Source: Thermoplasmata archaeon
GTDB lineage: Archaea; Thermoplasmatota; Thermoplasmata; Lutacidiplasmatales; UBA184
NCBI GenBank assembly: GCA_021791335.1
Contig: JAJYWS010000005.1
Coordinates: 1-55,161, forward strand
Direction: 5' to 3'
Length of the DNA stretch: 55,161 nt
In this document: positions 5,926 to 51,464 of the stretch, in pieces
How the letters are laid out: every line of letters starts with the position of its first letter
Position numbering within the stretch: position 1 is the first letter of the stretch
The notes under the pieces: model-generated
What the model was told of the DNA's origin: nothing
What the model saw: the letters and a program-made list of their open reading frames with translations, nothing else
Databases searched by the model: none
Program-made: the position numbers and the translations under genes

Positions 5926-7172
5926 CGGGGGCGGGGCGGCACCGGCGGGTAGGCGATCTTCGCCTCGACGGCGTGGGCGGCCGCGGCGGCCTTCCGACGG
6001 GCCTCCGGCAGGGTGGCTCCCCGGGCGACCGCGACGCCCAGCCGCCGGTCCGGGTACGCCTCGGGCTTTCCGAACAGGTAGAGCCGGACCCCCGGCTCCG
6101 TGAGGGCCTCGGAGAGCCCGCCGAGTTCGGGCGCCGGAGCCGAACGGTCGGCCAGGATGACGTGCGCCGCCGCCGGTGTGGTCGGTTCCGGTCCTCGGTA
6201 GGGGAGCCCGAGGATCGCCCGGGCGTGGAGGGCGAATTCGCTGTTCCACTGGCTGCCGAGCGTGACGAGGCCGGTGTCGTGGGGCCTCGGCGAGACCTCG
6301 CTGAAGTAGACCCGGTCCCCGGCGACGAAGCACTCGACGCCGAAGAGGCCGAACCCGCCCAGGCTGTCGGTGATCCGCCGGGCCACCCGGTCGAGCTCCG
6401 CCTCGACGGGCGCGGGAAACCGTTCGGGCTGCCAGCTCTCGTGGTAGAGGGTCCCCGGCCGGGCGTGGGCGATCGGCGCCAGGACCGTGGTCTCCCGTCG
6501 GCCCCCGGGCGCGTAGTGCCGGAGGGTCAGCATCGTGACTTCCCGGTCGAACCGGAGGAACTCCTCGACCATGACCCGGGGGTCGGGGACCCGGCCGTGC
6601 TCGCTCGCCTCGATGTAGGCGCGGTCGACCTGCTCCGGCCGGTCGACCCGGGTCATGCCGTGACCCGAGCTCGACATCATCGACTTGAAGAGGCAGGGAA
6701 AGCCGATCGCCCGGGCGGCGGCCCGCGCCTCGTCGAGGGAGGCGGCGACCTGGAACCGGCTGGTCGGCACCCGGGCGAGGTCGACGGCCCGGCGGCGGAG
6801 CCGTTCCCGGTCCATCGTGAGCCGGGTCGCCTCGGCGTTCGGGATCACCGTCCAGCCGTCCGATTCGAGCCTCAGCAGCTCCTCGGTGGCCACCTGCTCG
6901 ATCTCGGGCACGATGAGCTCCGGCGCCTCCCGCTCGACGACCGCCCGGAGCTCGGCCGGGTCGGTCATGGGGATCACGTGGTGCCGGTGGGCGACCTGCA
7001 TCGCGGGGGCATTCGGGTAGCGGTCGACCGCGATCACCTCGGCGCCGAGCCGCATCGCCTCCAGCGCGATCTCCCGGCCCAGCTCCCCGCTGCCGAGGAG
7101 CAGGAGCCGGGGGGCGGTCCCGACCACCGGGCTCCCGATCCGGTCCCGGTAGGCCACATTGGGGTCCGGCAT
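5922..7172 (-). CDS. purT: Formate-dependent phosphoribosylglycinamide formyltransferase (GAR transformylase 2)
   Basis: The 416-aa protein has LLLLGSGELGREIALEAMRLG, an ATP-grasp core, and SPRPHDTG. It starts at ATG 7172; the upstream part of ORF 5922..7784 is rejected. Confidence 0.85.
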   Translation of the reverse strand: MPDPNVAYRDRIGSPVVGTAPRLLLLGSGELGREIALEAMRLGAEVIAVDRYPNAPAMQVAHRHHVIPMTDPAELRAVVEREAPELIVPEIEQVATEELLRLESDGWTVIPNAEATRLTMDRERLRRRAVDLARVPTSRFQVAASLDEARAAARAIGFPCLFKSMMSSSGHGMTRVDRPEQVDRAYIEASEHGRVPDPRVMVEEFLRFDREVTMLTLRHYAPGGRRETTVLAPIAHARPGTLYHESWQPERFPAPVEAELDRVARRITDSLGGFGLFGVECFVAGDRVYFSEVSPRPHDTGLVTLGSQWNSEFALHARAILGLPYRGPEPTTPAAAHVILADRSAPAPELGGLSEALTEPGVRLYLFGKPEAYPDRRLGVAVARGATLPEARRKAAAAAHAVEAKIAYPPVPPRPR

Positions 7173-7198: not shown

Positions 7199-7204
7199 AA
7201 TAAC
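7199..7204 (-). promoter_or_regulatory. TATA-like box (GTTATT on the minus strand) for purT
   Basis: It lies 27 nt upstream of ATG 7172, between the Tmk-like gene stop and purT. Confidence 0.35.
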
Positions 7205-7219: not shown

Positions 7220-7906
7220 TCACCGCGGGGCGTAGAGCCGGGCGACGGCGGTCCGGACGTCGGCGTCGACCGCGTCGGGGTCCCGGTCGGCGTTGACCCG
7301 GACGAAGCCGTACTCCTTCGCCATCCAGTCGAACTCGGTCTGGAGCAGCCGCTGGAAGGCGAAGAAGCTCTCGAACCGGTCCCGGGAGATCGAAAGATCC
7401 ATCCCGGACTCCCAGTAGTCGAGCGATCCGTACCGGGCGATCGCCCGATGGAGGAGGATCTCGGGCCGGGCGTCGAGGAAGACGGTGAGGTGGGGGACCA
7501 GGGCGAACGAGTAGAGCTTGCGGGCCCACTCCCGGGTCGCGCCCCGGACCACCGCCCGGGCCATCAGGGTGTAGATGTACCGGTCGGCGAGCACGGCGCT
7601 CCCGGCCACCAGCGAGGGGAGGATCTTGTTCTCGAGCTGGTCGGCGAAGTCGGCGGCGTAGAGGATCGACATCGTCGTCGGGCTCAGGGTGTGGCCCTGC
7701 TTCGCCCGGTCGATCTCCGCACCGACCAGGCGGGAGCGCCGCAGGCCGGTGTCGACCACCGGATGCCCCTCGATCTCGAGCCACTCCTTGAGCCGGGCGA
7801 CCTCGGTCGTCCGGCCCGAGCCGTCGGCCCCCTCGATGACGATGAGCCGCCCCTGGATCGGGCCGTCGGTGGCCCGGGGAAGCCGGGTGCCGTAGGTCTC
7901 AGCCAT
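7220..7906 (-). CDS. dTMP-kinase-like P-loop protein with a degenerate Walker A (GADGSGRTT)
   Basis: The 228-aa protein has a Tmk-like layout (..LYAADFADQLE.., ..ADRYIYT..). The invariant P-loop Lys is replaced by Arg. It overlaps the upstream paralogue by 8 nt. Confidence 0.7.
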   Translation of the reverse strand: MAETYGTRLPRATDGPIQGRLIVIEGADGSGRTTEVARLKEWLEIEGHPVVDTGLRRSRLVGAEIDRAKQGHTLSPTTMSILYAADFADQLENKILPSLVAGSAVLADRYIYTLMARAVVRGATREWARKLYSFALVPHLTVFLDARPEILLHRAIARYGSLDYWESGMDLSISRDRFESFFAFQRLLQTEFDWMAKEYGFVRVNADRDPDAVDADVRTAVARLYAPR

Positions 7907-8606
7907 GGACGAGCGCCTCCGCGGTGGGGAAGTCGACGAGGAGCGGTCGGACCTCCTGACGGACCGACGCGACGACCTCCTCGACGCTCCGGTCGGCCCG
8001 GATCGTCACGAAGCCGTCCCGGGGCGCGAGCCGGTCGTACTCCCGCTTGAGCCGGGTCTGGAAGAGCCGGAAGCTCTCGAGCAGGCTCTCCGAGAGCCCC
8101 AGGTCCATGCCGGCCTCCCAGGTGTTGATCTTTTCGCGCGCGGCGAGCTTCCTCGCGATCGAGGTCGCGACGGGGACCCGGAAGTAGAGCACCCGGTCCG
8201 GCCGCGGGGCGAAGGCGTAGAGGTTGCGGACCCACCGGGGATCGCAGCCCCGGGCGGCGTCCCGGGCGAAGGCGGTGTAGGCGTAGCGGTCGCAGACGAC
8301 CAGATAGCCGGCCCGGAGCGGCGGGGCGATGTGCCGCTCGAAGCGGTCGGCGAAGTCGGCCGCATGGAGCAGCGAGAAGGTCGTCGCCGTCAGCAGGTTC
8401 TGCTTCTTGCCCCGCCGGATCGCGTCGGAGACCAGTTCCGACGAGTTCCACTCGGTGAAGAAGACCCGGTAGCCGAGCGCGCCGAGCCACTTGACCAGGA
8501 GCCGGGCCTGCGTCGACTTCCCGCTCCCGTCGAGCCCTTCGAAGGCGATGATCCGGCCCGGGTACCCGTGGCCCCCCGGCGGAGGCGTCCGACGGTCAGC
8601 GGGCAT
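7899..8606 (-). CDS. dTMP-kinase-like P-loop protein with a canonical Walker A (GLDGSGKST)
   Basis: The 235-aa protein is Tmk-like (..LLHAADFADRFE.., ..CDRYAYT..). It overlaps the ppx stop by 11 nt. Confidence 0.7.
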   Translation of the reverse strand: MPADRRTPPPGGHGYPGRIIAFEGLDGSGKSTQARLLVKWLGALGYRVFFTEWNSSELVSDAIRRGKKQNLLTATTFSLLHAADFADRFERHIAPPLRAGYLVVCDRYAYTAFARDAARGCDPRWVRNLYAFAPRPDRVLYFRVPVATSIARKLAAREKINTWEAGMDLGLSESLLESFRLFQTRLKREYDRLAPRDGFVTIRADRSVEEVVASVRQEVRPLLVDFPTAEALVHG

Positions 8607-10131
8607 CGACCTCCGCGCCCAGCCCGAACCGGTCGTCGAGCGGCCGGACCACCTTTTCGAGGAGCCGCTCCCGGCCGGCGGCCCCGAACCGGGGGGGCAG
8701 GTGGAGCGAGAGCCGCCGTCCGCCCCGGACCGGGGTCGCCCGGACCCCCAGATCGGTGAGCGTCGCCGCGACCCGCACGAGGGTGCCGAGAAGGCCGGCC
8801 GTTTTAAGGCTAGTTCCGTCCAGCAGCGGCCGCCACTCCCGCCGGACCCCCTCCGGCAGGTCGTCTTCCCGGGCCATGACCGCGAGCGCGGCGAGGCCGA
8901 TCGACCGGTGGGAGAGCCCGAGGTGGGGGAGGTGGCGCAGCAGGTAGGAGGAGTGCCGCTCCTGCCGCCAGTCGTCGACGACCCGGCCGAGGTCGTGGAG
9001 GACGGCGGCGGTCGCGAGCGCCATCCGCTCCTCGTCGCCCCACCCGCGCCGCCGGGCGACGGCGTCGTAGAGCCGCTCGGCGAGCGCCCGGACCTTGAAG
9101 TGCCGGGGCACCAGCGGTCCGAAGGTCATCCCGATCGAGTCGAGCGACCGGTCGAGCAGCGTGTCGGCGGAAGCGGGGACGGGGATCCGGGCGAACTCGA
9201 CGAGCAGCCCCTCCCGGATCCCGTGCCCGCTCACCAGGATCCGGTCGAGCCCCGTCCAGTCGAGGAGGCATCGGAACGTCTCGAGGCCGGCCGGGAGGAC
9301 CTCGGCCCGGGACCGGCCGATGCCCGGGAGCGCCCGGCGCCGCTCGGCGGCCATGGGGTGGAGGATCTCGCCGAGCGCCTCGAGATCGCTGCGGTGGAGC
9401 TCGAATCCGTGGGCCTGGGGCAGCGGGTACCCCCTCAGCTGGACGACGGCCCGGGCGAGCGCCCGGCCGGTGCCCCCGACCGCGATCAGCCGCCGGGCGC
9501 CGCGCAGACGCCGGACGGTCTCGAGCCGCGCCTCGACCTCGTCGGCGAGCCGCCGACGCTCCTTGGGCAGCGGCGGATCGTGCTCGAAGAAGCGGTCGGA
9601 GAGCCGCTGGGCCCCGAGCGGCAGCGAGACCGCCTCCCCGAACCGCCCGCCGCGGACCCGGACCAACTGGAGCGATCCGCCGCCCAGATCGGCGATGAGG
9701 TCGCGGTCGAGCGGCCAGGCGGCGGCGACCCCGAGATAGCCGTAGTACGCCTCCTCCGACCCCGAGAGCACCCGCAGCCGGAGGCCGGTCCGGCGCCGGA
9801 CCGCCTTCCGGAACCGGTCTTGGTTCGGCGCGTCCCGGACCGCGCTGGTCGCGACGGCCCGGACCGGCGGGTTCCCGAGCTCCTTCAGGTCCCGGGCGAA
9901 CCGGTCGAGCGCCTGGAGCCCCCGGTCGACCGCCCCCGGGCTCAAGCTGCCGTCGTCGGCGACCTGCCGGCCGAGCCTCGGGACCTCCTTCGCCCGGAAG
10001 ACGACCCTGAACCCGCCGTGGGCCCCGACCTCGTAGACGGCGAGCCGGGCCGTGTGGGAGCCGACGTCGATCACGGCCGCACGGCCGACCCGGATCCGCC
10101 GGACCGACCGGGGCGATCTCCCTCCGGTCAC
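8596..10131 (-). CDS. ppx: Exopolyphosphatase (Ppx/GppA family) with a C-terminal HD domain
   Basis: Motifs are AVIDVGSHTARL, IADLGGGSLQL and AAVLHDLGR. The protein is 511 aa long. Confidence 0.85.
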   Translation of the reverse strand: MTGGRSPRSVRRIRVGRAAVIDVGSHTARLAVYEVGAHGGFRVVFRAKEVPRLGRQVADDGSLSPGAVDRGLQALDRFARDLKELGNPPVRAVATSAVRDAPNQDRFRKAVRRRTGLRLRVLSGSEEAYYGYLGVAAAWPLDRDLIADLGGGSLQLVRVRGGRFGEAVSLPLGAQRLSDRFFEHDPPLPKERRRLADEVEARLETVRRLRGARRLIAVGGTGRALARAVVQLRGYPLPQAHGFELHRSDLEALGEILHPMAAERRRALPGIGRSRAEVLPAGLETFRCLLDWTGLDRILVSGHGIREGLLVEFARIPVPASADTLLDRSLDSIGMTFGPLVPRHFKVRALAERLYDAVARRRGWGDEERMALATAAVLHDLGRVVDDWRQERHSSYLLRHLPHLGLSHRSIGLAALAVMAREDDLPEGVRREWRPLLDGTSLKTAGLLGTLVRVAATLTDLGVRATPVRGGRRLSLHLPPRFGAAGRERLLEKVVRPLDDRFGLGAEVDAR

Positions 10132-10155: not shown

Positions 10156-10160
10156 ATAAA
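10156..10160 (-). promoter_or_regulatory. TATA-like box (GTTTATC on the minus strand) for the ppx operon
   Basis: It lies 25 nt upstream of ppx ATG 10131. Confidence 0.4.
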
Positions 10161-17402: not shown

Positions 17403-18359
17403 ATGGTCGACGCGGTCGGGCTCAAGGAACGGCTCGAGGAGGTCCGGACGGCGGTGCATACCGCCGTGGTCGGACGGGAGGCGATCGTCGACCAGGTGCT
17501 GCTCGGGTTGCTCTCCGACGGGCACCTCCTGCTCGAGGACCTTCCGGGTCTCGGCAAGACCCTCATCGCCCGGTCGTTTGCCGGGGCGCTCGGCCTCGAG
17601 TTCCAGCGGATCCAGTTCACGGCCGACCTCCTCCCCCACGATCTCACCGGCGGCGAGGTGATGGACCCCCAGAAGGGGGGGTTCACCTTCCGGCCCGGCC
17701 CGCTGTTCACGCAGCTCCTGCTCGCCGACGAGATCAACCGGGCGCCCCCGAAGGTCCAGTCGGCGCTCCTCGAGGCGATGCAGGAGTACCAGATCACGAG
17801 CGAGCGGGAGAGCCGCCCGCTCGCCCGCCCGTTCCTGGTCCTCGCGACCGAGAATCCGCTCGAACTCGAAGGGACCTATCCGCTCCCGGAGGCCCAGGTC
17901 GACCGGTTCCTCCTCCGGCTGAGGGTCGGCTATCCGACGGCCGAGGAGGAACGGGCGATCCTCGCCCGCCGACGGGCCCGTCGGCAGGATACCTGGGAGG
18001 TCGGCCCGGTCCTCGGCCCCGGCGAGTTCCGGCGGCTCCAGGGGGCGGTGGAGGAGGTCGAGCTCGACGCGTCGGTGGAAGGCTACATCGTCGATCTGGT
18101 CCGGGCGACCCGGCAGGATCCGAGGGCCGAGGTCGGCGCCTCACCCCGGGGTTCGCTCGCGCTCCAGAAGGTGGCCCGGGCCCGGGCCCTGCTCGAGGGG
18201 CGCGGCTTCGTGCTGCCGGACGATGTGAAACGGCTCGCCGGCCCGGCGCTGGCCCACCGGATCGTCGTCAAGGCCGAACCGTGGATCCGCGGGATCCGGG
18301 CCGAGGCGATCGTCGACCAGTGCCTCGCCCAGACCCCGGTGCCGAAGGCCCGGAGCTGA
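17403..18359 (+). CDS. MoxR-family AAA+ ATPase
   Basis: Walker A is LEDLPGLGKT and Walker B/sensor is LLADEINRAPPKVQSALLEAMQE. The protein is 318 aa long. Confidence 0.9.
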   Translation: MVDAVGLKERLEEVRTAVHTAVVGREAIVDQVLLGLLSDGHLLLEDLPGLGKTLIARSFAGALGLEFQRIQFTADLLPHDLTGGEVMDPQKGGFTFRPGPLFTQLLLADEINRAPPKVQSALLEAMQEYQITSERESRPLARPFLVLATENPLELEGTYPLPEAQVDRFLLRLRVGYPTAEEERAILARRRARRQDTWEVGPVLGPGEFRRLQGAVEEVELDASVEGYIVDLVRATRQDPRAEVGASPRGSLALQKVARARALLEGRGFVLPDDVKRLAGPALAHRIVVKAEPWIRGIRAEAIVDQCLAQTPVPKARS

Positions 18360-18402
18360 GGGGCCGGGGCCGCCCGGCCGGACCGTTGGGCCGCCCGAAG
18401 CG

Positions 18403-18408
18403 TTTAGA
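18403..18408 (+). promoter_or_regulatory. TATA-like box (TTTAGA)
   Basis: It lies 25 nt upstream of ATG 18433. Confidence 0.4.
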
Positions 18409-18432
18409 GCGAAGGGGGGCTCGACCCTGCAT

Positions 18433-19383
18433 ATGACCGCCCTCCCCTCGATCGTCATCGCCGATCCGATCGACCCCGCCGCCGTCGAGCTGCTCCGGCA
18501 GGGGCCCTGCCGCGTCGTCGACGCCTCGGCCGGACCCGACGCGCTCGCCGATGCGCTGTCGGAGGCCTGGGGCCTCGTCGTCCGCAGCCGGACCAAGGTG
18601 ACCGCCGATTTGATCGCCCGGGCCCCGAAGCTCTCGATCATCGCCCGGGCGGGGGTCGGGGTCGACAACGTCGATCTTCCGGCGGCCGGGGCCCGGGGGA
18701 TCCGCGTCGTCAACGCGCCCGGGGCGGCGACCCAGAGCGTGGTCGAACTTTCGGTCGCGCTCTACATTCTGCTCATCCGCGGCCTCCAGGGCTCGATCGA
18801 CTCGACCCGGGGCGGCCGGTGGGACCGCTCGACCCACGGACGGGAGCTTGCGGGCAAGACGGTGGGCTTCGTGGGGTACGGGCGGATCGCCCGGGCGGTC
18901 GCGGCCGCGCTGGTCCCCTTCCGCATCGTCCCCCGGGCCTACGACCCGCTGCTGTCGAAGGCCCCCGATTCGACAACGCTGATGGGGCTCGACGAGGTGC
19001 TTTCGGGCAGCGACATCGTGAGCGTCCACGCCGCCCTGACGCCGGAGAACCGTCATCTCATCGATGCCGCCGCGATCGCGAAGATGCGCCGGGGCAGCTA
19101 CCTGGTCAACGTCGCCCGCGGCGCGCTGGTCGACGAGACCGCGCTGCTCCACGCCCTCGACTCCGGCCACCTGGGCGGCGCCGCCCTGGACGTCTTCGAG
19201 ACCGAGCCGCCCTCCCGGACCGAGCTGCTCCGGCACCCCCGCTTCATCCCCACCCCGCACATCGGCGCGGCGACCGTCGAGGGGCAGGCGCGGGCCGGCC
19301 GGGATGTGGTCGATGAGCTTTTGCGGGCGCTCCGCGGTGAGCCGCTGATGTCGCAGGTGCCTACGCCGGGAGCCCGCCCATGA
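18433..19383 (+). CDS. serA: D-3-phosphoglycerate dehydrogenase / D-2-hydroxyacid dehydrogenase
   Basis: Motifs are GFVGYGRIARAV, NVARGALVDE, LDVFETEP and TPHIGA. Confidence 0.8.
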   Translation: MTALPSIVIADPIDPAAVELLRQGPCRVVDASAGPDALADALSEAWGLVVRSRTKVTADLIARAPKLSIIARAGVGVDNVDLPAAGARGIRVVNAPGAATQSVVELSVALYILLIRGLQGSIDSTRGGRWDRSTHGRELAGKTVGFVGYGRIARAVAAALVPFRIVPRAYDPLLSKAPDSTTLMGLDEVLSGSDIVSVHAALTPENRHLIDAAAIAKMRRGSYLVNVARGALVDETALLHALDSGHLGGAALDVFETEPPSRTELLRHPRFIPTPHIGAATVEGQARAGRDVVDELLRALRGEPLMSQVPTPGARP

Positions 19384-20516
19384 CGTTCGACCCCGAGACC
19401 GCGACCTTTCTCATCGCCGGTCCGGTCCGGATCCATCCCCGGATCCTCCGGGTCATGTCGATGCCGTCCCTCAACCACCGGGGCGACTATTTCCACGGGG
19501 TGGTCCAGGAGATCAAGGAGCTTTTGCCCGTGCTCTTCGGGACCCGGGGCGCCCAGGTGGTCCTCACCGGCAGCGGGACCGCCGGCCTCGAGGCGATGTA
19601 TTCGAGCCTCGTCCCGCGCCAGGGCCGGGTGCTGGTCCTCTCCAACGGGAACTTCGGGGAGCGGACCCAGGAGATCGTCCGGCGGTTCGCCGCCGAGGTG
19701 ACGGTCGTCTCCGCGCCGTGGGGCCAGCGCTGGTCGGTCGACGCCGCCCGGGCCGAGCTCGAGAAGGGGGATGTCGTCGCCGTCTGCGCCGTCCACAACG
19801 AGACCAGCGCCGGGGTCGCGAACGACCTGGGCGCCCTGGCCCCCGCGGTCCGGCGCTCCGGCGCGCTCTTCCTGGTCGACGGGATCAGCTCGCTCGCCGG
19901 CCTTCCGCTGCCGATCGAGGCGTGGGGGATCGACGCGGTCGTCGCCGGGAGCCAGAAGGGGCTCGGCGCTCCGGCGGGCCTCTCGATGGTCCACCTCTCG
20001 GAGCGGGCGGTCGCCGCCCTGCACCCCGGATCGTACTACCTCGACCTGGGCGCCCACCTGAAGTCGCTGCGGGACAACGACACCCCGTGGACTCCGGCGG
20101 TGCCGCTCTTCCTCGCCTTGCGGGAGGCCCTGCAGTTGCTCCGGGAAGAGGGTCTCGAGGCCCGACTCGAACGGACCCACCGGCTGGCCGAAGCGAGCCG
20201 GGCGGCCGCCGAGGCGCTGGGGCTCAAGCTCCTGCCCTCACCGGCCCAGGCCTCCGACACCGTCACCGCGCTCCACAACCCCGAGGGATTCACCGACGCG
20301 ACCTTCCGCAAGCTCCTCGAGCGGGAGTACAACGTGCTCCTCCAGGGCGGGCAGGGCAGCCTCAAGGGCAAGATCTTCCGGATCGGCCACATGGGCTTCG
20401 CCGACTGGCCGGACCTGCTCGTCACCTTTGCGGCGATGGAGCGGATCCTGACCAAGGCCGGCCGGGCGCCGGCCCGGGGATCGGCGCTGTCGGCGATCGT
20501 CGACCGGATGCCCTGA
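19380..20516 (+). CDS. Class V aminotransferase (phosphoserine / serine-glyoxylate type)
   Basis: It is ATGA-coupled to serA. A PLP-Lys region is present (..VAGSQKGLGAPAG..). The protein is 378 aa long. Confidence 0.8.
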   Translation: MTFDPETATFLIAGPVRIHPRILRVMSMPSLNHRGDYFHGVVQEIKELLPVLFGTRGAQVVLTGSGTAGLEAMYSSLVPRQGRVLVLSNGNFGERTQEIVRRFAAEVTVVSAPWGQRWSVDAARAELEKGDVVAVCAVHNETSAGVANDLGALAPAVRRSGALFLVDGISSLAGLPLPIEAWGIDAVVAGSQKGLGAPAGLSMVHLSERAVAALHPGSYYLDLGAHLKSLRDNDTPWTPAVPLFLALREALQLLREEGLEARLERTHRLAEASRAAAEALGLKLLPSPAQASDTVTALHNPEGFTDATFRKLLEREYNVLLQGGQGSLKGKIFRIGHMGFADWPDLLVTFAAMERILTKAGRAPARGSALSAIVDRMP

Positions 20517-20531
20517 GCCGGTCGATCGCCC

Positions 20532-20975
20532 TCAGATATCGACGATCACCCGGGCGCGTCCGCGCGCGGGGTCGAATTCGAGCCGGTGGAAGGTGATCGC
20601 CTTCACCTCCACCTTGGCCGGGTGCCGGGCCGGGTCGAACGGTTCCCCGAAGAGCCGGGCGTCGACCGACGGGGGCGGTCCCGGGGCGAAGGTGAGCTCG
20701 ATCCGGCGGGCGAGGAACCCCTCGACCTGCTGGCAAACCAGGAGCTCGCCGAGGAATCCGACCACGAGCCCGGGCAGGTCGGCCGCCTCGGCCCGGACGC
20801 ATCGCTCCTCCCGGTCCCGGACCGTCCGCCGGTCGGTGATGAGCGCGTAGAGGCCGAGCCCGAGCCCCTCGAGCAGCACCTCCGGGCGCCGTCCCCGGGC
20901 CCAGATCCCCACATCGGCGGTCGTCGGGAACTGGCCGTAGCGCCGTCGACGTAGCGGTCGAGCGCCGGGCGGCAT
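20532..20975 (-). CDS. Archease
   Basis: Motifs are ..YGQFPTTADVGIWARG.. and a C-terminal ..VKAITFHRLEF... The protein is 147 aa long. Confidence 0.75.
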   Translation of the reverse strand: MPPGARPLRRRRYGQFPTTADVGIWARGRRPEVLLEGLGLGLYALITDRRTVRDREERCVRAEAADLPGLVVGFLGELLVCQQVEGFLARRIELTFAPGPPPSVDARLFGEPFDPARHPAKVEVKAITFHRLEFDPARGRARVIVDI

Positions 20976-30609: not shown

Positions 30610-32451
30610 GTGCCGCCAGTGGAGTTCCGGGTCCTGGGCAAGGTCGTCCCCCGCAGCGATGAGAGCGACTTCGATCCCGTCACCCTGAGGCTCCGCCGGG
30701 AGGGGGTCCCCCAGTTCCTGAACCCGCTCGACCAGCGGGCGCTGCGGATCGCGCTGGATCTCCGGGCGCCGGCCGAACCGGTCCGGCTGCTCTCGCTCGG
30801 CCCGCCGGGGGTGGCCCCGGTCCTGGCCGAGAGCTACGCCCTGGGGGTCGACGAGATCGACCTCCTGTCCGATCCCGCGTTCGCGGGCTCCGACACGCTG
30901 GCCACGGCTCGGCTCATCGCCCGCGCGGTCGGCCGCGCCCCCGCCTCCACGATCCTCGTGACCGGCGAGCGGAGCACCGATAGCGAGACCGGGCAGGTGC
31001 CGGCCCAGATCGCCGAGATCCTCGGCTGGCCGCTCTTCAGCGGGGCCCGGGAGATCCGCCGGCCGCCCGACGGCGATCGGTGGGAGATCACGACCGATTC
31101 GGAGCCGGGGTGGAGCCGGTACCGGGCCGCGCCGCCGTTCGTCGTCAGTGTCGGGGAAAAGGTCGCCCCGCTCCGCAAGGCGGCCCCCGAGGAGATCGAG
31201 GCCGCCCGCCGACGGCCCGTCCCCGTCCACTCGGCCGAGGCGCTCGGCGTGGACCCTGCGACGGTGGGGGCCCGAGGGTCACCGACCCGGGTGCGGTGGT
31301 GGCGGCCCGACGCCCCCCGGCGGAGCCCCGTGGTGCTTGCCGAGGGGCCGCTCGAGGAGCGGATCGGCCGGGCCGCGGCGATTCTCCGGTCCCGATGGGA
31401 ACGATCGGGGGCCGGGGCCCCGGCCGGGTCGCCCGGCGCCCCCCTCCGGCTCACGGGTCCCATGGCGGTCCTGGTCACCGACGAGGACGGCCACCCCGAC
31501 CCCGAGGCCATCGCGATGCTTTCCGCGCTGCGGGCGCGGGCGCCCCGGGTCGAGATCCGGGCGCTCTGGGTCGGAGCGACGCCCTCGACCGCGGAGGAAG
31601 AACGGCTCCGCCGGGCCGGCGCCGATCGGGCCGACCACTGGCCGGTGCCGGACGGGATCTGGGATGCGGCCGGGGTCGCCGAAGCGCTGGCCGGCCTCTT
31701 CCGCTCCTCCGGGCCGTTCCTCGGGGGGCTTTTCGTCTCCCACCCCTTCGGCCGAGCGGTCGCGGGCCGGCTGGCGGCGCGGCTCGGATGCGGCCTGACG
31801 GGGGACGCCGTCGGCCTGGCCGAGGAGGAGGGTGCGCCGGTCTGGATCAAGCCGGCGTCGGGCGGCTCGGCGAGCGCGGGGATCGCCGCGAGCGGCCTCC
31901 CCCACCTGGCCACGGTCCGGCCCGGGGCGTTCGAGGACGCGGGCCGTCGCCCCGATCCGGGGCCGATCGACTGGTCGAATCACGCCGCCCTTTCCACCGA
32001 GGGCCGGTATGCCCGGGTCGCGGCGGACCGGACGCCGGATCCGGCGCTCTCCCGTCTGCGGCGGGCGGAGGTCGTGGTCGTGGTCGGCCGGGGCTCGGGG
32101 GGCCCGGAGCGCTGGACCCGGATCGCGCCGATCCTGGAGCGTTGGGGGGCCGCCTGGGGGGCGACCCGGAAGGTGGTCGACGCCGAGCGGTTGCCGAAGG
32201 GGCGCCAGATCGGACTCACGGGCGTCTCGATCGCCCCGCGGCTTGCGGTGCTGCTCGGGGTCGGGGGGTCATCGAACCATCTGATCGGACTCCGTCGGGC
32301 CGGCACCCTGCTCGCCGTCAATTCGGATCCGGCGGCCCCGGTCTTCGCGGGGGTCGATGTGGGGATCGTCGCGCCGATCGAGGAGGTCCTCCCCCTCCTG
32401 CCCGGGGCGTTCGGGTTCCTCGGGGGAGCCTCTCGGTCCCCGGAGCCGTAG
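30610..32451 (+). CDS. Fused electron transfer flavoprotein, EtfB-like N-terminal half and EtfA-like C-terminal half
   Basis: The N-terminal half has ..AFAGSDTLATARLIA..TGERSTDSETGQVPAQIAEILGWP.. (EtfB-like). The C-terminal half has ..VVVGRGSGGPE..GATRKVVDAERLPKGRQIGLTGVSIAPRLAVLLGVGGSSNHLIGL..LLAVNSDPAAPVF.. (EtfA-like). It is a single 613-aa ORF. Confidence 0.75.
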   Translation: MPPVEFRVLGKVVPRSDESDFDPVTLRLRREGVPQFLNPLDQRALRIALDLRAPAEPVRLLSLGPPGVAPVLAESYALGVDEIDLLSDPAFAGSDTLATARLIARAVGRAPASTILVTGERSTDSETGQVPAQIAEILGWPLFSGAREIRRPPDGDRWEITTDSEPGWSRYRAAPPFVVSVGEKVAPLRKAAPEEIEAARRRPVPVHSAEALGVDPATVGARGSPTRVRWWRPDAPRRSPVVLAEGPLEERIGRAAAILRSRWERSGAGAPAGSPGAPLRLTGPMAVLVTDEDGHPDPEAIAMLSALRARAPRVEIRALWVGATPSTAEEERLRRAGADRADHWPVPDGIWDAAGVAEALAGLFRSSGPFLGGLFVSHPFGRAVAGRLAARLGCGLTGDAVGLAEEEGAPVWIKPASGGSASAGIAASGLPHLATVRPGAFEDAGRRPDPGPIDWSNHAALSTEGRYARVAADRTPDPALSRLRRAEVVVVVGRGSGGPERWTRIAPILERWGAAWGATRKVVDAERLPKGRQIGLTGVSIAPRLAVLLGVGGSSNHLIGLRRAGTLLAVNSDPAAPVFAGVDVGIVAPIEEVLPLLPGAFGFLGGASRSPEP

Positions 32452-34692: not shown

Positions 34693-35883
34693 TCAGAGGA
34701 CCGACTCGAACTCCTTGGTGATCTCGGGGTACTTGTCGTGGACCGCCTTGAGGATGTTGTGGACGGTCAGCTTCTGCAGCCGGACATCGGCGAGCGCATC
34801 GATCACCTTGTCGAAGGTCGCGTCGGAGAGGGTGCAGAGCTTCTCCTTCGCGAGCCAGTTGCGGAAGAGCTTCTCCTCCAGCTTGGCCCGCCAGCCCTTC
34901 TCATACTTCTGGAAGAACTCCTTCGTCGGGGTGCCGAGGCGGACCGCCTCGGCCGCGACCTCGCCGCAGATCTTCCCGGCGATGCAGCCGTTGGCGATCC
35001 CCCCGCCCGTCAGCGGGTCGATCATCCGGGCGGCGTCCCCGACCAGCATGAGCCCGTCGGTGACGGTCTGGTTGAGGGGCTTCGAGATCGAGACCCCGCC
35101 GCCGACCATGTCGATCTTCTTCCCCTTCGCGTAGGCCGGGTGGGCGGCGATCCACCGGTCGAGGTAGCTCTTCGCCTCGGCCATCCCGTGGATCTTGGAC
35201 AGCTGGACCCCGATGCCGACGTTGGCGAGTCCGTGGTCCTTCGGGAACACCCAGACATAGCCCCCGGGCGCCACCTCCCCGAGGTAGAAGTCGCAGTATC
35301 GGACATCGCAGTCGACCCCGGTCATGCGGTACTGCAGGCAGGAGTCCATGTCCCGGAGCGCGAGGTTGGTCGGGATCCCTCCCCAGCGTCCCACCTGGCT
35401 TTCGAATCCGTCCGCGCCGACCACGACCGAGGCCCGGATCTCGATCGGTTCGCCGAACTGCTTCGCCCGGGCCCCGACGATGCGGCCGTTCTCCCGGATC
35501 AGGCCGGTGGCCGCCGTTTTGAGCTGGATGTCGACGCCGGCGTTGCCGGCGTCGATCGCGAGCGCCTTGTCGAAGCCGTCGCGCTCCACCACATAGCCGA
35601 CCTCGTTGCCGGCGTGCTTCTCGTTGATCTCGAAGACCTTCTCGGAGGGCGAGTAGATCCGGGCCCCCTCGACCTCGAGGTTGATCCACTTGCCGGGGGT
35701 GATGCCGACCTCGGAGAGCCAGCTCTTGCTCATCCCTTCGCCGCAGCGGACCGGGCTTCCGATCTCCTGCCGCTTCTCGATCATCAGGACCCGGGCGCCG
35801 CTCTTGGCCGCCCATTTGGCGGTCATGCTGCCCGCGGGGCCGGCGCCGATCACCAGGACATCCGTGCTGAGATCCTTCGCCAT
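34693..35883 (-). CDS. Digeranylgeranylglycerophospholipid reductase (geranylgeranyl reductase family)
   Basis: Motifs are VIGAGPAGS, VRCGEG, PGGYVWVFP and VGDAARMIDPLTGGGI. The protein is 396 aa long. Confidence 0.9.
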   Translation of the reverse strand: MAKDLSTDVLVIGAGPAGSMTAKWAAKSGARVLMIEKRQEIGSPVRCGEGMSKSWLSEVGITPGKWINLEVEGARIYSPSEKVFEINEKHAGNEVGYVVERDGFDKALAIDAGNAGVDIQLKTAATGLIRENGRIVGARAKQFGEPIEIRASVVVGADGFESQVGRWGGIPTNLALRDMDSCLQYRMTGVDCDVRYCDFYLGEVAPGGYVWVFPKDHGLANVGIGVQLSKIHGMAEAKSYLDRWIAAHPAYAKGKKIDMVGGGVSISKPLNQTVTDGLMLVGDAARMIDPLTGGGIANGCIAGKICGEVAAEAVRLGTPTKEFFQKYEKGWRAKLEEKLFRNWLAKEKLCTLSDATFDKVIDALADVRLQKLTVHNILKAVHDKYPEITKEFESVL

Positions 35884-35896
35884 GGTTCCCTCGAAA

Positions 35897-36091
35897 TCAG
35901 CCGATCTCGATCGCGCCCACCGGGCAGGCCTTCACGCAGATCTCGCACCGGGTGCAGATCTTCTCGTCGAAGGTGATCCGGGTCTCGTCCAGGTAGATGC
36001 AGTTGAGCGGGCAGACCCCGACGCAGGCCCCGCAGTAGATGCACAGTTGTCCGCTGGACTCGATGTGGAGACTACGCTTGTTCGGAGTCAC
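35897..36091 (-). CDS. 2x[4Fe-4S] ferredoxin
   Basis: Motifs are CIYCGACVGVCP and CTRCEICVKACP. I prefer the GTG 36091 start (64 aa); the ORF-track ATG 36163 adds an Arg/Ser/Pro-rich extension. Confidence 0.75.
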   Translation of the reverse strand: MTPNKRSLHIESSGQLCIYCGACVGVCPLNCIYLDETRITFDEKICTRCEICVKACPVGAIEIG

Positions 36092-36201
36092 CGCCGACCT
36101 CGGTTCGGGAGCAGAGGCCCGGGTCTTAACGCTATCGTGACAGAGCGCGGAGCGCGGTCCCATCGCCCTCCGGCACCGGGGCCGGGGGGGTCGAAGGCGC
36201 C

Positions 36202-36231: not shown

Positions 36232-37521
36232 ATGGCTCCCCGCACGGAGGTCACCCCCCGCGCCGGATCCCCGGAGCCCCGCGTCGAGCGGGGCGTCCGA
36301 TCCGTCCGCCCCGCGGCCCGTCGGTTCCTGGCCCGGTATCTGCCCCCCGTCCGGTGCACCTGGCTCGCCCTGGTCGCCCTGGCGATCGGTTCGCTCCTGG
36401 ACCTGGGGGGGCTGGGGGTCGGCTCCCTGGTCGTGCTCCCGGTCGTGGCGGTCGCCACCGATCTCGCCTGGTCGCGGATCCGGTTCGAACGGCTCCGGTT
36501 TCCCGACGCGGCCCTGGTGACCGGCCTTCTCCTCGCGCTCCTCTTTCCCCCCACGGTTTCCCTCGCGGCCGCCGGTGCCTGCGTCCTGGCGGCCACCTCG
36601 CTCCGGCACGCGCTCCGGTTCCGCGGTCATCCGTGGTTCAACCCGGCCGCCCTGGGGGTCGTCCTGGGCGCGCTCGTCTTCGGGATCTCGCCGGCCTGGT
36701 GGGTCGGGGTGAGCCCGACCGGGGAGATCGCCCTCGTCGTGATCGGGGTGCTGCTCGCGCTGCGGAGCCCCTCGACCTGGCGGGTTCCGGCCACCTTCTT
36801 CCTGGTCTACGGTGTCGTGGCGGGGCTGGTCCATTTCCTCTTCGGCGGGATCCTCTCGGGGGAGCTGCTGCTGCTCTACACCTTCGACTCGGTCGCCCTC
36901 TTCTTCGGATTCTTCATGGTGGTCGAGCCCCGGACCGCGCCCTCCGACCCGGCGCTGCAGCCGATGTACGCCGGGACGGTGGCCGTGGCCTCGGTCCTGC
37001 TCTCGCTGGTGATGCCGAGCCTCGGCATCCTGGTCGCGCTCCTCTTCGGGAACCTGATCGCGATCGGCCTCCGGCAGGCCGCACCGGACCGCACCGCGGC
37101 GGTCTCGGCCTCCCGCCGGCCCGGCCGCCGGGCGGTGCCGCCCCCCGTCCGCTGGTCGGTGCCCCGGCGGATCGGGGCGACCCTGCTCACCTTCCTGATC
37201 GTGGGGGCGGTCGCGCTCTCCCTCCCGGCCGCGACGGTCACCGCACCGCTGGTCTCGGCGCCGCCGGGCGTCGGCCCGACGACGCCCTCCAGCGGCTGCC
37301 AGACCGACAACCCCTCGATCCCCGCCGCCACCCTTTCGATGCTCCACCAACGGCTCGGCCCCTCGGTGATCCTGAGCTACAATCCGAACACCGGCGCGGT
37401 GGTGTTCTACGATCCGGTGAACCACGTCACCGTGTCCGAGTTCGATCTCTACGAGGACTTCGGCTACGCCGAGTTCAACGGGGACGACTACGCGGTCCAG
37501 GGCTGCGCGCCCCCGGGCTGA
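36232..37521 (+). CDS. Orphan RnfD/NqrB-like polytopic membrane protein with a C-terminal soluble domain
   Basis: Motifs are ..RGHPWFNPAALGVVLG.. and ..FMVVEPRTAPSD... No other Rnf/Nqr subunits are nearby. The roughly 90-aa C-terminal domain carries 2 Cys. Confidence 0.6.
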   Translation: MAPRTEVTPRAGSPEPRVERGVRSVRPAARRFLARYLPPVRCTWLALVALAIGSLLDLGGLGVGSLVVLPVVAVATDLAWSRIRFERLRFPDAALVTGLLLALLFPPTVSLAAAGACVLAATSLRHALRFRGHPWFNPAALGVVLGALVFGISPAWWVGVSPTGEIALVVIGVLLALRSPSTWRVPATFFLVYGVVAGLVHFLFGGILSGELLLLYTFDSVALFFGFFMVVEPRTAPSDPALQPMYAGTVAVASVLLSLVMPSLGILVALLFGNLIAIGLRQAAPDRTAAVSASRRPGRRAVPPPVRWSVPRRIGATLLTFLIVGAVALSLPAATVTAPLVSAPPGVGPTTPSSGCQTDNPSIPAATLSMLHQRLGPSVILSYNPNTGAVVFYDPVNHVTVSEFDLYEDFGYAEFNGDDYAVQGCAPPG

Positions 37522-44969: not shown

Positions 44970-45938
44970 TCAGCCGATGCCGGCCCAGCGGAGCAGCAGC
45001 GTGGTGGCCGCCGCCAGGGTCGCCGCGGTCAGGGGGCCGGTCCCCCATTCGATCAGGATGTGGCGGACGACGCCCCAGCGGATCCTCGAGCGGTGCCGTC
45101 CGTACCCGACGCCCAGGAGCGCCCCCATGAGGGCCTGGTTGACCGACGTGTAGAAGCCGGTGAGGATGACCCCGAACAGGACGGTCGACTGGGCGAGCTG
45201 GGCGCTCGCCGCCATCGGCGGGTCCAGGTCGACCACCTCGTGGGACAACCGGTCGATCAGTCGATCCCCGAAGAAGAAGGCGCCGAGCCCCATGCCGAGG
45301 CCCCCGACCAGGGCCGCCGCGGTGGCGGTCGACACCCCGCCGAGGAGCAGCGCGCCGGTCGCATTGGAGACGTCGTTCGCCCCCAGCAGGAACGAGGTGA
45401 CCGCCCCCAGCCCGACCAGGGCCATGAGGGCGGGCGGGGAGCGCATCAGATGGAGCGCCCGGACCGGCCAGCGCCGGTGCAGGGTCCGGACGAGGAGGTA
45501 GGCGAGGAGCCCCGTGGCGATGGGGGTCAGCGCCCAGATGAGGACGAAGACGCCGACCGTGCCCCATTCGATCGAGGCCCCCGCGGCGAGACCGGTGCCG
45601 ACCGAGGCGAAGATGACGATCTGGCTCACCGAGATCGGGATCCGCAGCACGGTGAAGAGCGAGGTCAACAGGAAGGCGACCCCGATGATCGAGGCCGCCA
45701 GGGGGATCGGCAGGTGGCCGTGGAGCAGGAGGTCGTGCCCGACCGTCCGTTCCACCCGCTCCCCCGCGAGCGCGGCCCCCAGGAAGGTGAGCGGCGCCAT
45801 GATGAGCAGCAGCCGCCGGCGGGAGGCGGCCCCGGCCGCGTCGGCCATCCCCATGCAGGCGCCCGCGTAGTGGGCGCCGAGCGCGAACGCAAAGCCGAAG
45901 GCGAGGAATAGGAGGATCACGGCGCCCAGGGCGATCAT
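44970..45938 (-). CDS. Inorganic phosphate transporter, PiT family
   Basis: The signature GANDVSNATG is present. The 322-aa protein is polytopic. Confidence 0.85.
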   Translation of the reverse strand: MIALGAVILLFLAFGFAFALGAHYAGACMGMADAAGAASRRRLLLIMAPLTFLGAALAGERVERTVGHDLLLHGHLPIPLAASIIGVAFLLTSLFTVLRIPISVSQIVIFASVGTGLAAGASIEWGTVGVFVLIWALTPIATGLLAYLLVRTLHRRWPVRALHLMRSPPALMALVGLGAVTSFLLGANDVSNATGALLLGGVSTATAAALVGGLGMGLGAFFFGDRLIDRLSHEVVDLDPPMAASAQLAQSTVLFGVILTGFYTSVNQALMGALLGVGYGRHRSRIRWGVVRHILIEWGTGPLTAATLAAATTLLLRWAGIG

Positions 45939-45977: not shown

Positions 45978-46628
45978 TCAGGCGAGCGCCTTGGTGAGCG
46001 CCGAGATCGCGGGGTTGAGGTCCGGCTGTCCGAGGATGAAGATGGTGTCGGTGTAGCAGGACATCGCCTGCACGATGTTGACCCCGGCGGTCGAGAGCAC
46101 GCCCGCCAGGAAGGCGAGCAGCCCCGGGGTCTCCTCCACACTGTCCGGGCTCGTCACGGCGAGTTCGGCGAGCCCCCGGCGGGCGTCGATCACCTGGGCG
46201 TCCCGGAGCCTCCGGGTGACCCGGGGGACCGAATCCTCGTCGACGATGATCACGGTGCCCTGGGAGACCTGGATCACCCGGCACAGGGCGTTGTCGTCCA
46301 GCAGCTCCTCGACGACGTCCCCAAGCGCCTGGAGGACGTCGATCCCCTGGACGACCGTCACCGTCGCGACCTTGGTCCGGGTCTCGATCCGGCTCTTCCG
46401 GAGGACCCGGTGGATGCCCTCCTCCCGGATCCCGGGCCGTCGGGGGGAGGGGTAGCGTCGGCAGGCCGCGATCACCCCGGCGGTCGTCGTCCAGCCCAGA
46501 TCCTCGGCGATGCGGCGGGCCACCGCCGAGTGGTTGGCGATCCCCAGCCGGAGCGCCTCGGCCACCGTCGGATGGCCGTCCAGGTAGTCGCGGACCTGCC
46601 GGGCTACCGATCTCTGCGCGTCGGGCAT
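45978..46628 (-). CDS. HTH plus ACT-domain regulator-like protein
   Basis: The N-terminus has ..LGIANHSAVARRIAEDLG.. (HTH-like). The C-terminus has ..GLLAFLAGVLSTAGVNIVQAMSCYTDTIFIL.. (ACT-like). Confidence 0.6.
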   Translation of the reverse strand: MPDAQRSVARQVRDYLDGHPTVAEALRLGIANHSAVARRIAEDLGWTTTAGVIAACRRYPSPRRPGIREEGIHRVLRKSRIETRTKVATVTVVQGIDVLQALGDVVEELLDDNALCRVIQVSQGTVIIVDEDSVPRVTRRLRDAQVIDARRGLAELAVTSPDSVEETPGLLAFLAGVLSTAGVNIVQAMSCYTDTIFILGQPDLNPAISALTKALA

Positions 46629-46728: not shown

Positions 46729-47988
46729 ATGACGGACAAGGTAGTGCTGGCGTACTCCGGCGGACTCGACACCTCGGTCGCGATTCCCTGGCTCAAGGAG
46801 CGGGGCCTCGACGTGGTGGCCGTCACGGTCGACGTCGGCCAGCCCGGGGACCTCCAGGCCCACCGGCAGAAAGCGCTGCGCATCGGGGCGAGCGACGCCG
46901 TGGTGGTCGATGCCCGGGCCGAGTATGCCGAGGGCTACATTGCCCGGGCGCTCCGGGCCAACGCGATGTACGAGGGGATCTACCCCCTGAGCACCGCCCT
47001 CGCCCGCCCGCTCATCGGCAAGACCCTGGTCGACGTCGCCCGGAAGGTCGGCGCGCGGAAGATCGCCCACGGCTGCACCGGCAAGGGCAACGACCAGGTC
47101 CGGTTCGATCTCTGCACCACCAGCCTGGCGCCCGAGCTCGAGGTCCTCGCTCCGGCCCGGGTCTGGAAGATGACCCGGGAGGAGGAGATCGCCTACGCCG
47201 AGGCCCGGGGGGTCCCCGTGCCGGTCGGCCGCCGCTCCCCCTACTCCACCGATGAGAACCTCTGGGGCCGCTCGGTCGAATGCGGGATCCTCGAGGACCC
47301 CGCGGTCGAGCCTCCCGAGGAAGCGTACGGCTGGACGCGGGCGCCCGAGCGGGCGCCCGACACGCCGGTGTACGTCACCCTCGGCTTCGACCGGGGCCTG
47401 CCGATCTCGATCGACGGGCAGGCGACCGAACTGCCCGCGCTGGTGCCGATGCTCAACCGGCTCGCCGGGGACCACGGTGTCGGCCGGATCGACCACATCG
47501 AGAGCCGGGTCGTCGGGATCAAGTCCCGGGAGGTCTACGAGTGCCCGGCCGCCCTCACGCTCATCCAGGCCCACCAGGCCCTCGAGGCCCTGGTCCTGCC
47601 GAGGGACCTGCTCGACTTCAAGCGGTCGGTCGAGCAGCGGTATGCCCAGCTCATCTACGACGGCCTCTGGTTCACCCCGCTTCGGGAAGCCCTCGACGCC
47701 TTCGTCGCCTCCACCCAGTCCCGGGTCACGGGCGAGGTCGTCCTCAAGCTGTACAAGGGCAGCTCCCGGGTGGTCGGCCGCCGGTCGGCCTACGCGCTCT
47801 ACCAGCACGAACTCGCCACCTACGCGGAGGGGGACCGGTTCCGCAACGAGATGGCGGAGGGGTTCATCTACGTCTGGGGGCTTCCGGCCCGGACCTGGGC
47901 CTCCCTCGAGGAGCGCACCCCCCCGGCCCCGGTGCCTGGGGGGCCCCTGGCCTCCCCGCCGGCGAACGTCCGAACGGCTGTGGATTGA
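46729..47988 (+). CDS. argG: Argininosuccinate synthase
   Basis: Motifs are VLAYSGGLDTS and ..GCTGKGNDQVRF... The protein is 419 aa long. Confidence 0.95.
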   Translation: MTDKVVLAYSGGLDTSVAIPWLKERGLDVVAVTVDVGQPGDLQAHRQKALRIGASDAVVVDARAEYAEGYIARALRANAMYEGIYPLSTALARPLIGKTLVDVARKVGARKIAHGCTGKGNDQVRFDLCTTSLAPELEVLAPARVWKMTREEEIAYAEARGVPVPVGRRSPYSTDENLWGRSVECGILEDPAVEPPEEAYGWTRAPERAPDTPVYVTLGFDRGLPISIDGQATELPALVPMLNRLAGDHGVGRIDHIESRVVGIKSREVYECPAALTLIQAHQALEALVLPRDLLDFKRSVEQRYAQLIYDGLWFTPLREALDAFVASTQSRVTGEVVLKLYKGSSRVVGRRSAYALYQHELATYAEGDRFRNEMAEGFIYVWGLPARTWASLEERTPPAPVPGGPLASPPANVRTAVD

Positions 47989-49424: not shown

Positions 49425-49582
49425 CGCAGTGCCCGACCTGCGATGCGGGAGTGACGCCGAACGCCCTGATTGTGGGGGAGATCTTCGCCTGCCCCGACTG
49501 CGGTACCGAACTGGAGGTCCTGGGAACGGCCCCGTTCTCGGTCCAGTGCGCGCCGAAGGAAGCCGAGGACTGGGGTGAGTAA
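49421..49582 (+). CDS. lysW: Amino-group carrier protein LysW
   Basis: This gene is not in the ORF track (53 aa). My manual translation gives MTQCPTCDAGVTPNALIVGEIFACPDCGTELEVLGTAPFSVQCAPKEAEDWGE, with a zinc ribbon and a C-terminal EDWGE tail. It is ATGA-coupled to argH. Confidence 0.85.
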   Translation: MTQCPTCDAGVTPNALIVGEIFACPDCGTELEVLGTAPFSVQCAPKEAEDWGE

Positions 49583-51451: not shown

Positions 51452-51464
51452 GGCGCATGGACCG

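Follow-up and report, generated by a model that had tools for sequence, protein, structure and literature searches.

A ppx-linked pair of thymidylate kinase-like genes in a Thermoplasmata archaeon as a probable heteromeric family-3 polyphosphate kinase

Gene organisation and promoter of the ppx locus

The stretch of DNA analysed here, referred to as the window, comprises 55,161 nucleotides of contig JAJYWS010000005.1 from a Thermoplasmata archaeon, and reading of its minus strand shows three open reading frames (ORFs) at 7220–10131. These are ppx, which encodes an exopolyphosphatase (PPX) of the Ppx/GppA family, followed by two genes for proteins resembling thymidylate kinase (Tmk), which we discuss as candidate c-type and r-type subunits of a family-3 polyphosphate kinase (PPK3). 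Consecutive genes overlap by 11 and 8 nt (Table 1), exactly to the base as the initial annotation of this DNA had described them, and similar overlapping junctions of 4–22 nt are found in the corresponding loci of Sulfolobus acidocaldarius, Nitrososphaera and other Thermoplasmata, with an identical 8-nt c/r overlap in one of the latter (locus L008). The sequence GGAGGT lies just before the ATG of the cPPK3-like gene, which suggests translational coupling across the ppx/cPPK3-like overlap, and GGAGG is present 9 nt upstream of the rPPK3-like ATG. The ppx product matched the Pfam families Ppx-GppA (PF02541, 2.7e-52) and domain III (PF21447, 6.3e-07), and scored 271 bits against TIGR03706 (exo_poly_only), under the 307-bit cut-off of that model.

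The unit is preceded by a single TATA-like box, TTTAT, which ends 25 nt upstream of the ppx GTG, in keeping with the initial annotation. The window has a GC content of ~73% and holds only 22 runs of five or more A/T residues in 55 kb, many of them located 25–31 nt ahead of the start codon that opens a transcription unit (examples are 7199–7203, 10156–10160, and runs upstream of 12311, 17403, 36232, 37542(-) and 40217(-)). Archaeal leaderless transcripts would be expected to have a box at this distance from the start codon, and the frequency of this spacing among the A/T runs suggests that the host genome typically uses leaderless transcripts, with a TATA box at about -27. TTTAT is likely to be the promoter of a leaderless ppx-cPPK3-rPPK3 transcript, and we infer that the three genes are co-transcribed. 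Likewise, of 45 orthologous Thermoplasmata loci at least 15 have an AT-rich box 26–29 nt ahead of a GTG or ATG that is in frame, and in these the start lies 20–25 codons before the IDxGS motif of PPX. The public annotation of the contig begins ppx at GTG 10072–10074, giving a protein of 492 residues, 19 codons shorter than our 511-residue model. We favour the start at GTG 10131 because both the TATA spacing and the orthologous loci fit it, and the deposited model is probably 19 codons too short.

At the opposite end, the start of purT is found 47 nt downstream of the rPPK3-like gene, with a TTATT box ahead of it. We considered purT as a member of the operon, but this was ruled out by its own TATA-like box; purT thus has its own promoter and the operon consists of three genes, ending with the rPPK3-like gene.

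Relationship of the Tmk-like pair to PPK3

PPK3 was first described in 2024–2026 as the missing polyphosphate kinase of Crenarchaeota, in the form of SaPPK3 from S. acidocaldarius, which is composed of Saci_2019 (cPPK3) and Saci_2020 (rPPK3), both formerly annotated as deoxythymidine monophosphate (dTMP) kinases and encoded after the ppx gene saci_2018 (Hofmann et al., J Biol Chem 2026, PMC12995831; preprint 10.1101/2024.08.28.610084). The two proteins form an alpha2beta2 reversible polyphosphate kinase whose favoured direction is polyphosphate (polyP) + ADP -> ATP, and Saci_2020, which raises the activity of Saci_2019 about tenfold, has neither dTMP kinase nor polyphosphate kinase activity alone (PMC12995831). 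The initial annotation had pointed to such a two-Tmk enzyme encoded next to ppx, and correctly so. Other literature uses of the name PPK3 (e.g. Ruegeria pomeroyi ppk3) refer to PPK2-family enzymes and are irrelevant here.

The best solved-structure match for both window proteins was S. tokodaii ST1543 (STK_15430; PDB 2plr/5h70), a cPPK3 homologue whose structure was deposited as a dTMP kinase. It scored 186 bits with the first Tmk-like protein and 127.5 bits with the second, compared with at most 58 and 68 bits, respectively, for canonical Tmks, and it was not returned when E. coli Tmk was used as query at E <= 1e-10. In pairwise comparisons the first protein was 46% identical to Saci_2019, 55% to the c protein of Nitrososphaera and 54% to a bacterial c protein, while the second was 49% identical to the Nitrososphaera r protein, 53% to a bacterial r protein and 32% to Saci_2020. 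Saci_2020 itself scored 105–117 bits with r proteins, that of the window included, and 77–86 bits with c proteins, and the window r outscores the window c against it. Overall, the pairwise scores divided the proteins cleanly into c and r groups. AlphaFold2 monomer models of the two proteins, with a predicted local distance difference test of 92.6 (c) and 87.7 (r), again had the ST1543 structures as their best folds in Foldseek, with template modelling scores of 0.85–0.94 (0.89–0.94 for c) and E-values of 1e-17 to 1e-20; canonical Tmks reached about 1e-10 to 1e-12. In a neighbour-joining tree (Kimura distances, 200 bootstraps), which is a distance tree only, c and r together stood apart from the canonical Tmks in 180/200 replicates, with a c clade in 189/200, a Thermoplasmata c clade in 193/200 and a Thermoplasmata r clade in 188/200. 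By its sequence and modelled fold the window pair is a member of the PPK3 family, the first protein being c-type and the second r-type, as the initial annotation had proposed; this kind of system is known and published, and the window locus is a further member.

We also compared the pair with PPK2, with which PPK3 has in common that both are P-loop kinases acting reversibly on polyP, but neither Tmk-like protein matched the PPK2 profile PF03976 at E <= 0.01 and a PPK2 relationship was ruled out. Reported identity between PPK3 and PPK2 is likewise below 18%, with a distinct helix arrangement, although the two-domain class II PPK2, which has an inactive N-terminal domain, has been discussed as an analogous active-plus-inactive architecture (PMC12995831).

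It could be argued that both genes encode ordinary thymidylate kinases which arose by tandem duplication and lie beside ppx by chance. Both proteins match the Pfam family Thymidylate_kin (PF02223; 1.1e-26 and 2.7e-18 for the first and second), they share the P-loop kinase fold, Walker A, DRY/DRH motif and lid of canonical Tmk (E. coli, PDB 4tmk), the public names of their homologues are nearly all 'dTMP kinase', as is the deposited name of the S. tokodaii homologue, and the c protein scores 100.9 bits against the dTMP-kinase equivalog TIGR00041, over its 83.25-bit cut-off. However, the second protein reaches 80.1 bits and is under this cut-off, identity to E. coli Tmk is only about 28%, and canonical Tmk is a single gene where the window has a c/r pair linked to ppx, a pairing and linkage kept across distant phyla. 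In addition, Phe occupies the position of E. coli Arg78, which in canonical Tmks contacts the thymine base according to the structural literature, in both window proteins and in 100% of c and 92% of r sequences. The position of Phe74, likewise assigned a dTMP-binding role from Tmk structures, has His in c and Tyr in r; the canonical dTMP contacts (the Phe...Arg motif) are therefore not conserved in either window protein. Together with the separation of the pair from the canonical Tmk clade in the tree, this makes the ordinary Tmk reading very improbable. Furthermore, the orthologue Saci_2019 has no dTMP kinase activity, the only true dTMP kinase of S. acidocaldarius being the unlinked Saci_0893 (PMC12995831). 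TIGR00041 evidently does not separate PPK3 from Tmk, and as the cPPK3-like protein lies above its trusted cut-off, annotation pipelines will go on naming PPK3 c proteins 'dTMP kinase'.

Conserved motifs of the c and r subunits

For motif comparison, 77 c and 88 r sequences of diverse origin were aligned, and 120 close homologues of each subunit were examined as separate sets. The Walker A motif GLDGSGKST of the window c and the altered P-loop GADGSGRTT of the window r, in which Lys is replaced by Arg, were both confirmed in the sequence. At this position Lys is found in 77/77 of the diverse c sequences and Arg in 88/88 of the diverse r sequences, and among the close homologues GK[ST] was present in all 120 c proteins and GR[ST] together with DR[YF] in all 120 r proteins. 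Several further positions also distinguish the subunits and are fixed or nearly so in the diverse set; Glu52 of c (in the TEWNSS motif) is Gly in r, Ser55 is Arg and His81 is Tyr. Lys68, position 69 and Arg91 (c numbering) are basic in c only, position 69 being Gln in the window c and Lys in most c sequences, and these three positions are candidates for the residues that would line a positively charged polyP cleft. By comparison, the DRY motif and the arginines equivalent to c Arg115 and Arg119 (Arg117 and Arg121 in r) show little or no variation in either subunit, with DRY in 88/88 diverse r sequences, including that of Nitrososphaera, which Hofmann et al. count as PPK3. One residue, Arg57, is specific to r, occurring in 94% of r sequences and in none of c.

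The r subunits of Sulfolobaceae show a different pattern. Saci_2020 has the P-loop GIMSSGKT, in which Lys is kept, together with DGY as its DRX motif and Trp in place of Arg117, while the r proteins of S. tokodaii and M. sedula combine an Arg P-loop (EGIEGSGRT and EGSEGSGRT, respectively) with DGY. Judged from these alignments, Lys->Arg in the P-loop is a family-wide mark of r subunits, with Saci_2020 the sole exception among the sequences examined, and its strict restriction to r agrees with the suggestion in the initial annotation that the Arg P-loop marks a non-catalytic subunit. Loss of the DRX arginine, on the other hand, looks like a lineage trait of Sulfolobaceae and not a family-defining one, because, of the r subunits examined, only the three from Sulfolobaceae showed it. 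The inactivity of r has been explained by replacement of this arginine (PMC12995831). The window r retains it, and since its pattern is the opposite one (P-loop Arg, DRY kept) the published rationale is not transferable to it; from its motifs the window r is of the mainstream type, with an active site that is intact save for the P-loop Lys.

An r site so well preserved could be a working ligand-binding site and not merely part of an inert activator, serving to sense nucleotide without turnover, to hold polyP where nucleotide was once bound, or to phosphorylate a different substrate as a second kinase. The near-invariance of DRY, Arg117, Arg121 and the P-loop Gly and Asp in the 88 diverse r sequences indicates strong constraint, the complete conservation of the P-loop Arg looks like selection for function and not decay, and r has Arg57 as a residue of its own. 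Against this, a P-loop enzyme whose Walker A Lys is exchanged for Arg can as a rule no longer carry out phosphoryl transfer. Control of SaPPK3 by the levels of ATP and ADP is strong, which would suit a sensor, but Saci_2020 alone showed no activity and r lacks the c-specific basic patch that has been linked to polyP binding (PMC12995831). On balance we regard this alternative as unlikely. A more specific proposal is that r is a non-hydrolysing nucleotide or polyP sensor that sets the ATP/ADP-dependent direction of the reaction, Lys->Arg being a selected, universal signature and Saci_2020 a derived and unrepresentative r; the Arg P-loop spans Thermoplasmata, Methanocellaceae, Nitrososphaera, several bacterial phyla, S. 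tokodaii and M. sedula, and we put this proposal forward only tentatively. Because the r site is otherwise intact and its Arg strictly conserved, some ligand-binding role (nucleotide sensing or polyP holding) may be entertained, with a likelihood that runs from slight to modest according to how strongly it is stated. Our preferred reading is still that r most likely has no ATP turnover of its own.

Synteny and distribution

Using two r-specific peptide patterns, we scanned one genome per GTDB species and confirmed at least 561 r-type loci, of which the best 80 were used for all synteny counts. About 50 of these 80 are from Thermoplasmata metagenome-assembled genomes (MAGs) and two from Methanocellaceae, with the rest from Verrucomicrobiota, Bacilli (including Ferroacidibacillus organovorans), Geobacteraceae, KSB1, Zixibacteria, Sumerlaeota, Armatimonadota and Bacteroidota. 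In every one (80/80) the next gene upstream of r, in the same orientation, is a c gene, ppx is within 5 kb on the strand of the pair in 67/80, and the order ppx>c>r, free of further marker genes on that strand, holds in 55/80. The conserved ppx synteny that the initial annotation had asked for is thus present, as is the separation from canonical Tmk clades described above. The order ppx -> c -> r is also that of S. acidocaldarius, Nitrososphaera, one bacterium and a second Thermoplasmata locus, and it is kept in many Thermoplasmata MAGs whose orthologues are 73–74% identical to the window proteins. A search of 1.84 billion cluster representatives returned 9346 relatives at E <= 1e-3, 176 of them at E <= 1e-30. 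For comparison, the published distribution of PPK3 is narrow and patchy, being mainly Sulfolobaceae, Nitrososphaeraceae and a few bacteria, and the main text of that paper mentions neither Thermoplasmata nor a Walker A Lys->Arg change (PMC12995831).

The predicted PPK3 operons of Nitrososphaera, of Verrucomicrobiota, Geobacteraceae, Ferroacidibacillus and other bacteria, and of Thermoplasmata and Methanocellaceae MAGs have the same GxDxSGR[ST] P-loop and DRY in r as the window, but in many bacterial loci ppx follows the pair or is absent within 5 kb. Downstream of r the Thermoplasmata loci also differ from the window, as almost all of them (L013–L061) have a convergent gene for a SixA-type histidine phosphatase there, whereas the lineage of the window has purT and an Inhibitor_I42 (chagasin-like) gene instead; likewise, no SixA gene was found within 5 kb in a 95% relative of the window (L012).

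Natural fusions were also observed. P0361 (460 residues), which looks genuine, joins a full c domain to a full r domain through a linker in one polypeptide, the P-loop of its r domain having degenerated further to GSDYSGHY, and P0436, P0428 and P0405 are further single polypeptides of this c-linker-r form. Their existence supports a physical interaction between c and r. Two other candidates, P0140 and P0189, each have one truncated domain and were rejected as they look like prediction or assembly artefacts.

Predicted function of the operon

Taken together, orthology, fold, synteny and motifs make it highly probable that the three genes form an operon, itself probably leaderless, for PPX and a heteromeric family-3 polyphosphate kinase, with enzyme activity assigned by analogy to SaPPK3. 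The likeness to SaPPK3 extends to gene order with overlapping junctions, to the Tmk fold of both subunits, and to the Walker A, DRY, TEWNSS and basic-patch motifs of c. Differences are the host, a crenarchaeon in one case and a member of Thermoplasmata in the other; the r subunit, with P-loop Lys, DGY and Trp at Arg117 in Saci_2020 and P-loop Arg with DRY in the window; the PPX, which is a 511-residue long form with domain III in the window and has 411 residues in S. acidocaldarius; and the neighbourhood, as the window has no SixA upstream and no CHAD downstream.

Several observations weigh against the assignment. The c protein passes the dTMP-kinase equivalog cut-off; support in the tree for an r clade with Saci_2020 in it is no more than moderate (122/200); Saci_2020, the sole characterised r, is both distant from the window r and atypical, with its P-loop Lys kept and its DRX Arg lost; and SixA and CHAD, which most PPK3 operons have, were not found anywhere in the 55-kb window. 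The polyP-linked neighbours reported for PPK3 operons are PPX, SixA, CHAD and Pst (PMC12995831). A genome with PPK3 would be expected to hold a canonical tmk away from the operon and, as a rule, neither PPK1 nor PPK2. In favour of the assignment, annotation and profile searches of the 55-kb window found no third Tmk and no PPK1 or PPK2. The description of the locus as a complete polyP module in the initial annotation is slightly generous; ppx and the c/r pair are present, but SixA and CHAD are absent from the window.

By analogy with SaPPK3, cPPK3 would transfer phosphate reversibly between ATP/ADP and polyP using its intact Walker A Lys, DRY clamp and basic patch, with polyP + ADP -> ATP as the favoured direction and polyP made only at a high ATP/ADP ratio. 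rPPK3 would assemble with cPPK3, as alpha2beta2 in the manner of SaPPK3, and raise its activity, and PPX would hydrolyse polyP.

Table 1. Coordinates of the ppx-cPPK3-rPPK3 operon, its motifs and boundaries, and of an electron-transfer gene region in the window
Feature	Position	Strand	Details
ppx	8596-10131	-	exopolyphosphatase, Ppx/GppA family, 511 aa, GTG start
First Tmk-like gene, cPPK3-like	7899-8606	-	235 aa, ATG 8604-8606
Second Tmk-like gene, rPPK3-like	7220-7906	-	228 aa, ATG 7904-7906
11-nt overlap ppx/cPPK3-like	8596-8606	-	ppx TGA 8596-8598 inside cPPK3-like ORF
8-nt overlap cPPK3-like/rPPK3-like	7899-7906	-	cPPK3-like stop 7899-7901 inside rPPK3-like ORF
c Walker A GLDGSGKST	8511-8537	-	Lys30 at 8517-8519
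c DRY	8283-8291	-	TEWNSS motif and basic patch RGKKQ also in c
r P-loop GADGSGRTT	7805-7831	-	Arg32 = CGG at 7811-7813
r DRY	7577-7585	-	Arg117 and Arg121 also kept
TATA-like box TTTAT	10156-10160	-	25-29 nt upstream of ppx GTG 10131
TTATT box, operon downstream boundary	7199-7203	-	27-31 nt upstream of purT ATG 7170-7172
Electron transfer flavoprotein (ETF)/reductase/ferredoxin/RnfD-NqrB region	30610-32451	+	
	34693-35883	-	
	35897-36163	-	
	36232-37521	+	

Host and wider sequence context

The host is a GC-rich Thermoplasmata archaeon and lies outside the Crenarchaeota, as the initial annotation had thought possible. Close homologues carry the organism name 'Thermoplasmata archaeon', identical proteins are on record in GCA_027315645.1 (contig DAHVCE010000003.1), and the window holds the archaeal markers archease, geranylgeranyl reductase and a LysX-type cluster. 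Scans of the window for tRNA genes and Rfam families gave no match.

The only other phosphate-related gene in the window encodes a PHO4/PiT-family phosphate transporter and is located 37 kb from the polyP operon, next to a gene for a 216-residue ACT_7/DUF7523 protein (44970–45938 (-) and 45978–46628 (-) for transporter and ACT_7/DUF7523 protein, respectively). The latter may be a regulator of the transporter. The plus-strand genes at 46729–54452 encode argininosuccinate synthase, followed by a LysX-type ATP-grasp protein, a semialdehyde dehydrogenase, an amino-acid kinase, a class-III aminotransferase and an M20 peptidase, and look like a LysW-type lysine/arginine biosynthesis cluster; within this region 47988–49470 is without annotation in the gene call used.

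A protein of 613 residues contains two ETF domains and an ETF-alpha FAD domain and resembles a fused EtfB-EtfA. Its neighbours are a geranylgeranyl reductase, a 2x[4Fe-4S] ferredoxin and an RnfD/NqrB-like membrane protein, and together these genes may form an electron-supply module for lipid saturation. Just past the low-coordinate end of the window, near-identical contigs from different samples (loci L004–L007, at about 17900–20687) diverge from one another, with an rve integrase fragment in one, a Cas1 gene in another, and an HNH_2 gene and a CitMHS transporter in another, and this region looks like a strain-variable island.

Implications

These results add Thermoplasmata, with a large number of uncultured members, and Methanocellaceae to the hosts of PPK3 and show r-type loci to be spread over many bacterial phyla, far more widely than the published summary suggests. 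They also point to the Arg P-loop, and not DRX loss, as the general signature of r subunits. The DRX-loss rationale for an inactive subunit fits Sulfolobaceae only, whereas P-loop Lys->Arg is the family-wide change. Recognition of PPK3 beyond Crenarchaeota matters for mending 'dTMP kinase' annotations and for reading phosphorus and energy storage from metagenomes.

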